From IMG/VR virus record IMGVR_UViG_2675903481_000015: 5,885 bases of DNA; one strand, 5' to 3'. The first letter of the stretch is position 1. Each line of letters starts with the position of its first letter. The notes below the pieces were generated by a model that had not been told where the DNA came from, ran no database searches, and saw only the letters and a list, made by a program, of their open reading frames with translations. The DNA comes from a virus. Lineage: Duplodnaviria > Heunggongvirae > Uroviricota > Caudoviricetes. This document shows positions 1 to 3,389 of this stretch, one piece after another. The position numbers and the translations under genes are program-made.

Positions 1-95
1 GCTTTACTGTTGATGGCGTCGCCTGGAAGGTGCGCATAGATGCAGGTGTCGCGGCCCTCGACTATCGCGGATTACTGAAATCGAGTGGAGCATGA
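1..95 (+). CDS. 3' end of an unidentified ORF entering from the left edge (C-terminus ...FTVDGVAWKVRIDAGVAALDYRGLLKSSGA, stop TGA 93-95)
   Basis: Frame 3 is open from the window edge to TGA at 93-95 and is followed directly by a hairpin plus T-run. Too short for any family assignment. Confidence 0.3.
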   Translation, partial: FTVDGVAWKVRIDAGVAALDYRGLLKSSGA

Positions 96-102
96 CAACA
101 AG

Positions 103-125
103 GGCGGCGATAGCCGCCTTTTTTT
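103..125 (+). terminator. Rho-independent terminator-like hairpin (GGCGGC-GATA-GCCGCC followed by 7 T)
   Basis: Perfect 6-bp GC stem 103-108/113-118 with 4-nt loop, then TTTTTTT 119-125, immediately after the stop at 93-95. Confidence 0.45.
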
Positions 126-352
126 ACGGGTCCTCCCGGTGGGGTGGTCTGCCACGGGGCGGGAGCGGCGCGGAAAAAGGCTGGTTTTTGCATTTTCATT
201 CGTCATCATCATCTTTCTATCATATTGAATTTTAAGTGCTTTTATTTTTGGTATGTTAATTTTGCTTATTTTGCGTTCAACATACAGCGCGTTTTTTGAC
301 CTTTTTTAAAAGATATTTGCAAGATGCATGTTTAAAACATTCTGGAGCGGGT
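126..352 (+). other. Lambda-like cos region (cosQ/cosN-like GC-rich segment 126-175, then AT-rich cosB-like segment up to the terS start)
   Basis: 126-173 ACGGGTCCTCCCGGTGGGGTGGTCTGCCACGGGGCGGGAGCGGCGCGG resembles the lambda right-end/left-end junction as I recall it (ACGGGTCCTTTCCGGTG...GTTACG|GGGCGGCGACCTCGCGG). The AT-rich stretch that follows contains TTCGTCAT, also recalled from lambda cosB. Position about 180 bp upstream of a Nu1-like gene matches lambdoid layout. Recalled, not aligned. Confidence 0.5.
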
Positions 353-838
353 ATGGATCGGGAACTGAAAAATCTGATGCTGAACATTAACCAGCTGGCG
401 GCGATAGCGGGAATATGTCGCCAGACTGCGGCGGCAAGGCTGAAAAATATCCAGCCAGCCGGAGGACATGACAAGCTGAAACTCTATCGGGTGACTGACA
501 TTCTGACCTGTTTTCTTGATCTTCCCGTTCCGGCATCACTGGAAGAAATGGAGCCACACGACCGTAAGGCCTGGTATCAGTCCGAACGTGAGCGCCTCAA
601 GTTCGAACAGGAAACGGCGCAACTCATACCCGCCGATGATGTGCGAAAAGAGATGGCTATATGGGGAGAAATCGTAAGCGAGGAACTGGAAAAACTCCCC
701 AGTATTCTGGCACGTGATGCTGGGCTTAAACCGATGGCAGTAAACAGAGTGCAGTCAATTATTGACGATTTGTGTAATCTGATTATCAGCCGGATGGTAA
801 AAAATGACGTAGTGAATGAGGTCGCAAAACAGGCATGA
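353..838 (+). CDS. Terminase small subunit, Nu1 family (or a satellite-encoded TerS-like packaging protein)
   Basis: Track ORF 296-838; preferred start ATG 353 (MDRELKN...) with GGAG at 344-347. N-terminus LNINQLAAIAGICRQTAAARLKN...P.GG..K..LY matches the lambda gpNu1 winged-HTH pattern (VNKKQLADIFGASIRTIQNWQ...), and GEIVSEELEKLP resembles gpNu1 AGEIASILDGLP. Sits downstream of the cos-like site. Confidence 0.72.
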   Translation: MDRELKNLMLNINQLAAIAGICRQTAAARLKNIQPAGGHDKLKLYRVTDILTCFLDLPVPASLEEMEPHDRKAWYQSERERLKFEQETAQLIPADDVRKEMAIWGEIVSEELEKLPSILARDAGLKPMAVNRVQSIIDDLCNLIISRMVKNDVVNEVAKQA

Positions 839-1122
839 TAATGACCGAATCTGAAATACTGCGATTAATCCGCTGTGCTGGTGGAATTAGCCAGTTGGCT
901 GACGAACAGGCCGCGCAGCCGGATACAGTCACCGCTGAAAATTACGCGCGTGTGGTGGCTGAGGTGATGCGCCGTGACGGTATTGAGCTTAACGGCGTGG
1001 ATATGCGCAACATACGAACCAGAGTCCTTGAGTTGCTGGCATACCGTCGCCGTTCTCAACAACGGAGGGAGAGCGCGAAAAATACTTACCAGTGGAAGAA
1101 GCCGGAACGACTGCGGCGGTAA
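835..1122 (+). CDS. Hypothetical 95-aa protein coupled to terS, occupying the position of the large terminase gene; possibly a terL N-terminal remnant
   Basis: ATG 835 overlaps the terS stop (ATGA, 835-838); alternative ATG 841. Basic C-terminus (RRRSQQRRESAKNTYQWKKPERLRR). N-terminal SEILRLIRCAGG weakly resembles recalled lambda gpA N-terminus (SQVNRLRHFVRAGL). No ATPase or nuclease motifs. Confidence 0.4.
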   Translation: MIMTESEILRLIRCAGGISQLADEQAAQPDTVTAENYARVVAEVMRRDGIELNGVDMRNIRTRVLELLAYRRRSQQRRESAKNTYQWKKPERLRR

Positions 1123-1363
1123 CTTGCTGATATTCCCGATAACGCAAAATTGCGTTGGCTGGTGGGTGAGTTGCAGATTTGCAACTCGACCATGAAACTA
1201 CGGAAACTACCCGTAGTTTGGGTAGTAAGAGTAACACCCAGATTTTGGGGCTTACTCGCGATACCCAAATAAAGGGTATCGGTGGAAGAAATATCGTTTC
1301 TCATATGTAAGTACCGAGGGCGGAATTCCGCCTTCGGTTACTTATTGTGCTCATGCACAGGGA

Positions 1364-1423
1364 GGGGCGGGTCAAATCTCTGTACCCTGACGTCTTCAGG
1401 ACTGCCCGCCCCATCGATTTTTT
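1364..1423 (+). terminator. Long-loop hairpin with T-tract (GGGGCGGG ... CCCGCCCC, then TTTTTT)
   Basis: Perfect 8-bp GC inverted repeat 1364-1371/1405-1412 around 33 nt that holds an inner CCTGA/TCAGG pair (1386-1390/1396-1400); TTTTTT at 1418-1423. Plausible terminator for the terS transcript, though the loop is atypical. Confidence 0.3.
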
Positions 1424-1585
1424 ATACCCGCGAAAAATGAAAAACGCTTCACGCTGGTGGGCCTGATGCCGATATGGGGATCCACATAACGGATTATCCG
1501 TGATCATCCACCAGCTTCATAGCGGATAGCCGAAAAATGATAACGGTTAAGCAAAACTGCCAGCAAATTTCCCTTTTGTTTGTTA

Positions 1586-1640
1586 TTGTTCGTCGTTGTT
1601 CGTAGGGCTTCAACGAAATGTGTGGTCAGTTGTGTGGTCA
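1586..1640. repeat. Short tandem direct repeats: TTGTTCGT x2 (1586-1593, 1596-1603) and TGTGTGGTCA x2 (1619-1628, 1631-1640)
   Basis: Exact repeats read directly from the sequence, in an AT-rich non-coding stretch about 70-120 bp upstream of the junction with the thiM leader. Confidence 0.5.
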
Positions 1641-1708
1641 TTTTTGAGGTTTTTAATTCTTATATGCTTAAAAACTTATTAATTATCAACTGATAACAAA
1701 AATTAGTA

Positions 1709-1803
1709 AGAAATACCCGTATCACCTGATCTGGATAATGCCAGCGTAGGGAAGTCACGGACCACCAGGTCATTGCTTCTTCACGTTATGGCAGGAGCAA
1801 ACT
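1709..1803 (+). promoter_or_regulatory. thiM leader: 3' part of the TPP riboswitch (THI-box) plus expression platform and SD; 5' aptamer half absent
   Basis: AAATACCCGTATCACCTGATCTGGATAATGCCAGCGTAGGGAAGTCACGGACCACCAGG...GGCAGGAGCAAACT matches the E. coli thiM leader as I recall it. The preceding GGGGTGCCC...GAAGGCTGAG is missing (GTAAGA here in place of CUGAGA). GGAG SD at 1794-1797. Confidence 0.6.
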
Positions 1804-2592
1804 ATGCAAGTCGACCTGCTGAGTTCAGCGCAATCTGCGCACGCGTTACACCTTTTTCACCAACATTCCCCTCTTGTGCACTGCATGACCAACGATGTGG
1901 TGCAAACTTTTACTGCCAATACCTTGCTGGCGCTCGGCGCATCGCCAGCGATGGTTATCGAAACCGAAGAGGCCAGTCAGTTTGCGGCTATCGCCAGTGC
2001 CTTGTTGATTAACGTTGGCACGCTGACGCAGCCACGAGCGCAAGCGATGAGTGCTGCCGTTGAGCAAGCAACACGATCACAAACGCCCTGGACGCTTGAT
2101 CCGGTTGCGGTTGGTGCGCTCGATTATCGCCGCCGTTTTTGTGTGGAACTTCTGTCCCATAAGCCAACCGCCATACGTGGTAATGCTTCGGAAATCATGG
2201 CATTAGCTGGCGTTGCTAATGGTGGACGGGGAGTGGATACCACTGATGCCGCAGCTAACGCGATACCCGCTGCACAAACACTGGCACGGGAAACTGGCGC
2301 AATCGTCGTGGTCACTGGCGAGGTGGATTATGTTACCGATGGACATCGTATCATTGGCATTCACGGTGGCGATCCGTTAATGACCAAAGTGGTAGGAACT
2401 GGCTGTGCACTATCGGCGGTTGTCGCTGCCTGTTGTGCGCTACCAGGCGATACGCTGGAAAATATCGCATCTGCCTGTCACTGGATGAAACAAGCCGGAG
2501 AACGCGCAGTTGCCAGAAGCGAGGGGCCAGGCAGTTTTGTTCCACATTTCCTTGATGCGCTCTGGCAATTGACGCAGGAGGTGCAGGCATGA
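1804..2592 (+). CDS. thiM: Hydroxyethylthiazole kinase
   Basis: 262-aa ORF with SD GGAG upstream; near-identical by recall to E. coli ThiM ([32 protein letters not shown]...[18 protein letters not shown]). Confidence 0.95.
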
Positions 2593-3389
2593 AACGAATT
2601 AACGCTCTGACGATTGCCGGTACTGATCCGAGTGGTGGTGCGGGGATTCAGGCCGATCTTAAAACCTTCTCGGCACTTGGCGCTTATGGTTGCTCAGTTA
2701 TTACTGCACTGGTGGCGCAAAATACCCGTGGTGTACAGTCGGTGTATCGCATTGAGCCTGATTTTGTCGCCGCCCAGCTCGATTCGGTGTTCAGTGATGT
2801 GCGAATCGACACCACTAAAATCGGTATGTTGGCGGAAACCGATATTGTTGAAGCGGTGGCAGAACGGTTGCAACGTTATCAGATCCAAAACGTGGTACTC
2901 GACACCGTTATGCTGGCAAAAAGCGGCGACCCGCTGCTTTCACCATCGGCGGTTGCTACGCTGCGCAGTCGATTATTGCCACATGTTTCATTAATAACGC
3001 CAAACTTGCCCGAAGCAGCCGCCTTGCTCGACGCGCCACACGCGCGCACCGAACAGGAAATGCTGGAACAAGGGCGATCGCTGTTGGCGATGGGCTGTGG
3101 CGCAGTGCTAATGAAAGGTGGTCATCTGGATGATGAGCAAAGCCCGGACTGGCTGTTTACTCGTGAGGGGGAACAACGATTTACTGCACCGCGCATTATG
3201 ACCAAAAACACCCACGGCACTGGTTGTACGCTCTCTGCGGCGTTGGCTGCACTACGCCCGCGCCATACAAACTGGGCTGACACCGTACAGGAGGCAAAAA
3301 GCTGGCTTTCATCGGCATTAGCCCAGGCCGACACGCTGGAAGTTGGTCACGGTATTGGTCCGGTTCACCACTTCCACGCCTGGTGGTGA
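2589..3389 (+). CDS. thiD: Hydroxymethylpyrimidine / phosphomethylpyrimidine kinase
   Basis: 266-aa ORF; ATG 2589 overlaps the thiM stop (ATGA), indicating translational coupling. N-terminus [27 protein letters not shown] and GTGC motif are typical of ThiD. Confidence 0.95.

Follow-up and report, generated by a model that had tools for sequence, protein, structure and literature searches.

The DNA analysed here, referred to throughout as the window, is the whole of a 5,885-nucleotide stretch from the Caudoviricetes record IMGVR_UViG_2675903481_000015, in which satellite-phage DNA runs directly into the thiamine genes thiM and thiD. At this point the leader of thiM retains only part of its thiamine pyrophosphate (TPP) riboswitch, and the DNA upstream belongs, in our reading, to a phage-inducible chromosomal island (PICI) of the EcCI224 type. 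Window coordinates equal those of locus L001, from strain MS21324, minus 20,000. The features on which the argument rests are the following.

1530 to 1708, plus strand: AT-rich, integrase-specific right arm of the attachment (att) site, here the attR arm; GC content 0.32; related satellites at other sites share only 1-1529, and the arm is kept in nine metagenome contigs and in a further island at the same core (locus L012).
1576 to 1645, plus strand: 70-nt repeat, found by repeat search, 87% identical to a copy just upstream of the integrase gene (int) at the left end of the island (attL), and holding the tandem motif TGTGTGGTCAGT/TGTGTGGTCATT at 1619-1642.
1709 to 1722, plus strand: right copy of the 14-bp att core AGAAATACCCGTAT, in J3/2 and the P2 3′ strand of the TPP aptamer, recognised from the direct repeat, the homology boundaries and a match to the published EcCI224 core.
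1709 to 1769, plus strand: retained 3′ half of the thiM TPP aptamer (P2 3′ strand, P4/P5, P1 3′ strand), with 100% identity to intact-site genomes and covering RF00059 positions ~53-105 at high posterior probability.
1773 to 1803, plus strand: intact expression platform by sequence and folding, with the anti-Shine-Dalgarno (anti-SD) sequence TTGCTTCT at 1773-1780, the Shine-Dalgarno (SD) sequence AGGAGCAA at 1793-1800 and the thiM ATG at 1804.
1804 to 2592, plus strand: thiM (hydroxyethylthiazole kinase), intact, 262 aa, from the open reading frame (ORF) and annotation.
2589 to 3389, plus strand: thiD (hydroxymethylpyrimidine (HMP) / HMP-P kinase), intact, 266 aa, overlapping the thiM stop, from the ORF and annotation.

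The junction upstream of thiM

An initial annotation of the window had recognised the 3′ region and platform of the thiM riboswitch from about 1709 onwards, with AT-rich repeat DNA standing where the upstream aptamer elements and the CUGAGA motif should be. Comparison with genomes bears this out. In a BLAST search of window 1560-1860 against 5,426 complete Escherichia coli genomes, those with an empty site align from exactly 1709 (query base 150), at 99-100% identity through thiM. Position 1709 is therefore the breakpoint, and window 1500-1708 gave no alignment, colinear or otherwise, to the reference rcnR-thiM spacer. Positions 1706-1711 read GTAAGA, where E. coli K-12-type leaders have CTGAGA, and GC content falls to 0.18 at 1641-1708, against 0.51 across the whole window.

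The Rfam model of the TPP riboswitch (RF00059) gives the same picture. With cmscan, window 1635-1769 produces a sub-threshold match of 33.3 bits (E = 0.00096), below the gathering score of 54.3 bits, whereas an intact thiM site scores 71.2 bits; no full-length significant match that includes CUGAGA was found on the leader. Almost all of the 33.3 bits come from the native 3′ half. The alignment requires a 48-nt insertion and leaves CUGAGA unmatched, and its P3 columns are non-canonical or absent, such that no pyrimidine-sensor arm is recognisable. Three of the five P1 pairs are flagged as non-canonical, the true P1 5′ strand being at attL. What has been kept is the pyrophosphate-sensor arm P4/P5 (ACCUGAUCUGGAUAAUGCCAGCGUAGGGAA) together with the thiM SD/anti-SD platform, 100% identical to intact sites from 1709 on. 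The only other RNA family match, to RF02189 (ST7-OT4_3) at 38-275, was dismissed as chance (E = 0.28; a human long non-coding RNA family). Since the junction occurs in 75 complete genomes and nine metagenome contigs, it is neither a coincidence nor an assembly artefact.

An island integrated within the riboswitch

Strain MS21324, whose locus is 100% identical to window 1-1810, shows what lies beyond the edge of the window. There, an island of 10,949 bp separates rcnR from thiM in place of the usual spacer of ~220 bp, and window 1-1708 is its right end, on the attR side. A direct repeat of 14 bp, AGAAATACCCGTAT, brackets the island; its left copy occupies L001 10760-10773 and its right copy window 1709-1722, 10,949 bp away. 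Homology to empty sites extends on the left to L001 10773, where the left core copy ends, and resumes on the right at window 1709, where the right copy starts. At attL, 10.9 kb upstream of attR, nothing is missing from the 5′ half of the aptamer (GGGGTGCCC...GAAGGCTGAG) or from the native promoter candidate. There the sequence ...CGACTCGGGGTGCCCTTCTTTGTGAAGGCTG runs into the core at a distance of ~190 bp from the start codon of int, which lies downstream and has the same orientation. A candidate for the native thiM promoter (TTTACA-17-TACCAT) precedes the 5′ half-aptamer, and between it and the int start codon no terminator-like site was found (L001 10670-10962).

The gene content of the island is that of a Gram-negative PICI. 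Its first part encodes a tyrosine integrase, DUF6387, AlpA, a YlcI/YnfO-like protein (opposite strand), an Icd-like protein, a hypothetical protein and DUF4222. The second part encodes a D5-type primase, a HEPN protein and a 42-aa ORF (both on the opposite strand), a ClpP-protease/capsid fusion, DUF1441 and a 93-aa protein. The genes for the integrase, AlpA, the D5 primase, the protease-capsid fusion and the small-terminase-like (TerS-like) DUF1441 protein all run in one direction, the same as thiM. The island thus combines int, alpA and primase/replication genes in one transcription direction with a size within ~10-20 kb, and has its own specific att site with a flanking direct repeat. No lysis genes, tail genes or full virion module appear in the island annotation, with some small ORFs falling outside the search; the protease-capsid fusion and TerS-like gene are the only genes of this kind. 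The portal, large terminase and head-tail connectors of the capsid-forming PICI (cf-PICI) module are also absent from that annotation, eight island proteins having been run against Pfam and PHROG. The integrase is of the P4 type: it has an N-terminal arm-DNA-binding domain (PF13356, Arm-DNA-bind_3, 62.5 bits) and a catalytic domain (PF00589, 62.0 bits), both over the cut-off, and repeated putative arm sites flank the core on both sides.

The element itself is already known. EcCI224 was described in strain Ecol_224 (CP018948.1:1961620-1972242) as a 10.6-kb island with core AGAAATACCCGTAT at 'frmR-thiM' (Fillol-Salom et al. 2018, ISME J, PMC6092414 supplement), and attL and attR sequences labelled 'rcnR_thiM.EcCI224' are given in the supplements of Mageeney et al. 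2023 (PMC10111431). The attL and attR found here match the latter base for base, and in our own mapping the published end coordinate of EcCI224 falls on the last position of the attR core. The two islands therefore share core, location, attL and attR, and differ slightly in size (10.6 versus 10.9 kb). Ecol_224 is 100% identical to the window over 1560-1860 and 96.6% identical over 1-1810; the window island is thus a variant in another strain, with 96.6% identity in the late region.

We are highly confident that window 1-1708 is the right end of an EcCI224-type Gram-negative PICI, integrated site-specifically within the thiM TPP riboswitch. The riboswitch split is the programmed att-site choice of a known PICI, not an illegitimate rearrangement. 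In the proposed mechanism, a P4-type tyrosine integrase recombines the 14-bp core, which is the DNA of J3/2 and the P2 3′ strand and is conserved in Escherichia and Salmonella. Conservative integration bisects the aptamer. The promoter, P1 5′ and P2 5′ strands, P3 and CUGAG are left at attL, pointing into int, while the P4/P5 arm, the P1 3′ strand, the anti-SD/SD platform and thiMD lie at attR, behind the AT-rich arm of the island. A 14-bp core shared by both ends is the signature of conservative tyrosine-integrase recombination, and consequently the split should reverse on excision. Excision would restore the riboswitch exactly, with CTGAGAAATACCCGTATCACC as the expected attB and TTAGTAAGAAATACCCGTATTTTCTC as the expected circular junction.

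Recurrence among genomes

The same split recurs across E. coli. The attR junction is present in 75 of the 5,426 complete genomes (~1.4%) and attL with int in 76, and the aptamer is contiguous in 5,338. Carriers were isolated from humans, dogs, deer and chickens and have different thiM protein alleles, and no examined carrier has a broken thiM or thiD ORF. Metagenomes were scanned for the core and 3′ half behind any base except the native G; the nine contigs returned all share both the arm and the junction.

The site is also used in Salmonella. Five integrases from Salmonella-type contexts, 67-74% identical to that of the island, adjoin rcnB. The attL junction ...GGCTGAGAAATACCCGTAT|TTTCT... 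is identical in three of them (P0002, P0003, P0005), although the host flanks and cargo differ. This evidence concerns the attL side, with upstream DNA read for three of the five integrases, as the loci end just after int or the island exceeds the 10-kb flank. What these integrases target is the conserved aptamer sequence itself. Among species-representative genomes, which evidently do not carry the island, a protein scan gave no confirmed relative of the integrase and a junction scan gave no attR-type junction.

Anatomy of the attachment site

Related E. coli satellites at other chromosomal sites have window 1-1529 in common with the island, but not 1530-1708. A satellite in GCA_010686425.1 (locus L006, 9600-20400) carries a near-identical backbone of DUF4222, primase, capsid fusion, DUF1441 and orf93 between cspD and clpS, and its integrase is 66% identical to that of the window island. 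A shared backbone with a differing integrase and site implies that the integrase and its arms form an exchangeable module, of which window ~1530-1708 is the right arm.

Within this arm, the tandem motif of the 70-nt repeat probably represents arm-type integrase binding sites that co-evolve with the arm-binding domain of the integrase. In one Salmonella locus (L003) the tandem motif upstream of the integrase is conserved, as two copies of TGTGTGGTCAG. In a Salmonella relative (L004; region 9770-10000 of loci L003-L005) both copies are altered alike, to TGTGAGGTCAG twice. A role for the 70-nt repeat as a duplicated int promoter was considered and rejected: it lacks promoter-like hexamers, consists in part of a tandem 12-mer, and that 12-mer covaries in the Salmonella relative.

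Two smaller observations concern the same region. The arm-type motif recurs in inverted form, 83% complementary (CAACTGATAACA), 10 bp away from the core (window 1621-1632 and 1687-1698); this copy may be a further site for the integrase or an accessory factor. In NZ_LR882057.1 (L012 14001-14030) the core is taken up by a shorter island, ~7.6 kb long and encoding a PerC-family regulator. Its attR reads GTATTACCTG versus GTATCACCTG; the first base 3′ of the core is that of the island side, a hint of the position of strand exchange.

Other features of the island end

The remaining features of window 1-1708 belong to the late region of the island.

1 to 95, plus strand: 3′ end of the ClpP-like prohead protease / major capsid protein fusion (L001 18182-20095), from RefSeq annotation of the identical locus, Pfam Phage_capsid_4 and CLP_protease, and PHROG 133.
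353 to 838, plus strand: DUF1441 / small-terminase-like gene (PF07278, 123 bits; PHROG 141 'terminase small subunit', E = 2.4e-56).
841 to 1122, plus strand: last satellite ORF, 93 aa, in PHROG 1561, a function-unknown family (annotation, PHROG search).
1197 to 1278, no strand assigned: nested inverted repeats whose half-sites are TACCC/GGGTA, among them CTACCCGTAGTTTGGGTAG and GATACCCAAATAAAGGGTATC, lying 3′ of the TerS-like gene (repeat search).
1307 to 1423, plus strand: two stable GC-rich hairpins, at 1307-1345 and at 1364-1412, the latter followed by TTTTTT at 1418-1423 (fold z-score -4.9; one terminator-like match at 1313-1338).

The inverted repeats are a candidate packaging (cos-type) or protein-binding region. 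From their predicted folds, the hairpins are likely to be transcription stops, which could insulate thiM from the PICI late operon, or a cos structure. Outside the window, the HEPN-domain gene (L001 17116-17829, minus strand) occupies the gap between the genes for primase and capsid, where accessory or defence functions are typically placed; a PADLOC search of the island HEPN and DUF6387 proteins returned no match.

Other elements in the same aptamer

A second family of islands occupies the thiM TPP aptamer between rcnR and thiM, for example in strain 19KM1776 (NZ_CP151009.1, locus L014, 18887-27860). Its 435-aa tyrosine integrase (L014 19013-20320) is unrelated to that of the PICI and has no match to an arm-binding domain, and its cargo comprises a GmrSD-like DUF262/HNH protein, a resolvase-family recombinase and helix-turn-helix proteins. 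This integrase adjoins the riboswitch in ~123 of the 5,426 E. coli genomes. The second island brings an aptamer copy with it at the thiM-proximal end, CAACCAAACGACTC...GCGTAGGG, an identity block of ~80 bp. A full-scoring riboswitch (71.2 bits) consequently precedes thiM, with island DNA in place of the native promoter region. The second island is thus a target-restoring element, and the PICI is not, having an identity block of 14 bp and an arm without the aptamer 5′ half. By their sequences, two unrelated integrases use the thiM aptamer, and the second family restores it where the PICI does not.

Both elements are present in 19KM1776, in the order PICI, second island, thiM. The PICI attR, together with riboswitch bases as far as GCGTAGGG, abuts the 435-aa integrase. 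The tandem array spans L014 5839-18900 on the PICI side, and the PICI there looks degraded, with a frameshifted capsid fusion and a duplicated late-gene segment. Further, in NZ_CM172609.1 (locus L011, 1420-3000) an IS3 element lies in the thiM leader, and homology to the window resumes at 1737, inside P4/P5. This insertion is an independent natural disruption of the thiM riboswitch, the third at the locus.

Consequences for thiMD expression

Solved structures of the thiM aptamer establish that TPP binding requires both of its arms. Substitution of GUAAGA for CUGAGA removes the G that contacts the pyrimidine ring in those structures. An RNA without the P1 5′ strand and the pyrimidine-sensor arm, such as the one now preceding thiM, should be blind to TPP. 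The thiM-proximal aptamer is thus likely not a functional TPP sensor, and we judge it probable that TPP sensing of thiM is lost in island carriers. It is reasonable to infer, along the lines of the initial annotation, that a TPP-blind thiMD would depend on promoters in the insert.

Folding predictions address the platform that remains. In the long hairpin predicted for the retained half, the anti-SD region is taken up by pairing to GCCAGCGUAGGGAAGUC and GGAG stays largely unpaired; the predicted pairing probability of the SD in short transcripts is 0.1-0.36. For the shortened leader, the SD-free fold has a predicted energy of -35.8 kcal/mol, versus -32.3 for a forced SD:anti-SD fold. This margin of 3.5 kcal/mol equals that of the ligand-free full-length leader. 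A platform that defaults to the ligand-free, SD-accessible fold would permit translation constitutively, and we infer as much for thiMD. thiMD would then have to be transcribed either from weak initiation sites within the arm or by transcripts continuing out of the PICI late operon.

Several points weigh against this account of continued expression. A strict sigma-70 consensus scan of window 1100-1850 found no promoter, and relaxed scoring of the right arm gave weak matches only, with -10-like bases that vary between island variants. Two strong hairpins stand between the last PICI gene and thiM, and read-through may thus be poor. In long 5′-extended transcripts, the minimum free energy fold pairs the thiM start region with island sequence, which could lower translation. 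The contact predicted in long transcripts between the arm repeat and the start codon of thiM is one that we regard as unreliable, since G-U pairs hold it together and it changes with the choice of 5′ end. Because thiD is necessary for de novo thiamine synthesis in E. coli, some thiMD expression would be expected in prototrophic carriers.

Alternative explanations

Within the window, foreign DNA stands where the 5′ half of the riboswitch would be expected, and the initial annotation accordingly proposed that phage-related DNA had replaced it. Foreign DNA does abut the 3′ half at ~1709, but the 5′ half has been displaced rather than lost. That illegitimate recombination or deletion destroyed it is scarcely credible: it survives together with the promoter at attL, the element is enclosed by a 14-bp direct repeat, the junction is identical across E. 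coli thiM alleles and in Salmonella, and the core is a published att site. The attL alone already refutes replacement. Only marginally more plausible, and still extremely unlikely, is that the right arm supplies a substitute 5′ half and hence a working, divergent TPP sensor, as in tRNA-targeting islands. cmscan does align RF00059 positions 1-105 at window 1635-1769, and the second island family shows that an element at this site can restore the aptamer. Yet the score below threshold, the non-canonical P1 and P3, the 48-nt insertion, the GUAAGA and the arm of 18% GC all speak against a sensor of this kind.

Two further readings accept the integrated PICI and differ in what it does to thiMD. Polar silencing, in which thiMD is essentially untranscribed and carriers are thiamine auxotrophs or rely on salvage in the gut, is an alternative that we consider rather unlikely. 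The native promoter lies 11 kb away, window 1100-1850 holds no consensus promoter, the hairpins at 1307-1412 are strong, and PICI operons have been described as repressed until helper-phage induction (PMC6092414). On the other hand, thiM and thiD remain intact in all examined carriers, though the insertions are perhaps too recent for decay, and ~1.4% of genomes are occupied, from human, dog, deer and chicken isolates. AT-rich DNA often initiates transcription at a low level, and very little TPP is needed. At the opposite extreme, the insertion might have been selected for constitutive or PICI-coupled thiMD expression, with int placed behind the thiM promoter of the host. The candidate for that promoter is directed at int without an intervening terminator, the platform defaults to the ON state, and the island genes are co-oriented with thiM. 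Such adaptive rewiring seems to us quite doubtful: a highly conserved core is a simpler cause of site choice, tRNA genes being a parallel, other integrases and sites are found with the same backbone, carriers are infrequent, and the -10-like stretch of the arm is not conserved. Site-specific integration of an EcCI224-type PICI remains our preferred explanation of the locus.

Significance and relation to known systems

The element and its insertion site were already known, and the splitting of the riboswitch appears to have gone unremarked within the literature searched. The word 'riboswitch' does not occur in the texts or supplements examined of PMC6092414 and PMC10111431. A 2025 att-site paper gives protein-coding genes, tRNA/tmRNA, csRNA and intergenic regions as targets, riboswitches not being among them. 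Within the searchable literature, a full-text search found no running-text link between thiM, or any natural riboswitch, and a PICI or integrase att site; the site itself is given in supplementary tables alone. What is new here is the recognition that the EcCI224 att site lies inside the thiM TPP riboswitch and splits it, and that the site is a shared hotspot.

A broader proposition would take the aptamer DNA as a tRNA-like hotspot, chosen for its strong conservation by at least two unrelated integrase families, one of which rebuilds its target. The PICI, on this proposition, would produce reversible riboswitch-split strains (~1.4% of E. coli and some Salmonella), with TPP-blind thiMD, int behind the thiM promoter, and two-way cis-coupling of measurable effect. 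In this full form we consider it improbable. On our main reading, wild E. coli and Salmonella would harbour a natural, reversible knockout of a textbook riboswitch as a segregating variant. The value to the cell of TPP control of thiMD could be read from carriers set against derivatives cured exactly of the island, as could the behaviour of a leader of which the expression platform alone remains. Riboswitch aptamers join tRNA, tmRNA, small RNA and ffs genes as conserved structured-RNA att sites, with strategies that do and do not restore the target both present at the thiM locus. PICI catalogues should record the site as 'within the thiM TPP riboswitch' instead of 'intergenic rcnR-thiM', and an absent riboswitch call upstream of thiM would serve as a flag for an occupied att site.

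Compared with the model E. coli PICI, EcCICFT073, the island has the same int-alpA-primase backbone, unidirectional genes, capsid homologue, TerS-like late gene and 10-20 kb size. It differs in integrase and att site. Helper-embedded PICIs and 'regulated gene integrity' elements (PMC10111431, PMC7192596) likewise interrupt a functional unit site-specifically and restore it on excision. Their target is a protein-coding late gene, whereas here it is a riboswitch and the connection between promoter and leader. Structured-RNA att targets include tRNA and tmRNA genes (P4-type integrases), ffs (phiEf11, PMC12540744) and pneumococcal csRNA (cited in PMC12540744). With the integrases that use such targets, the PICI shares a short, conserved, RNA-coding attB and an arm-binding integrase of the P4 type. 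Unlike theirs, its target is a cis-regulatory mRNA leader, which is not rebuilt, such that the RNA is functionally split for as long as the island is integrated.

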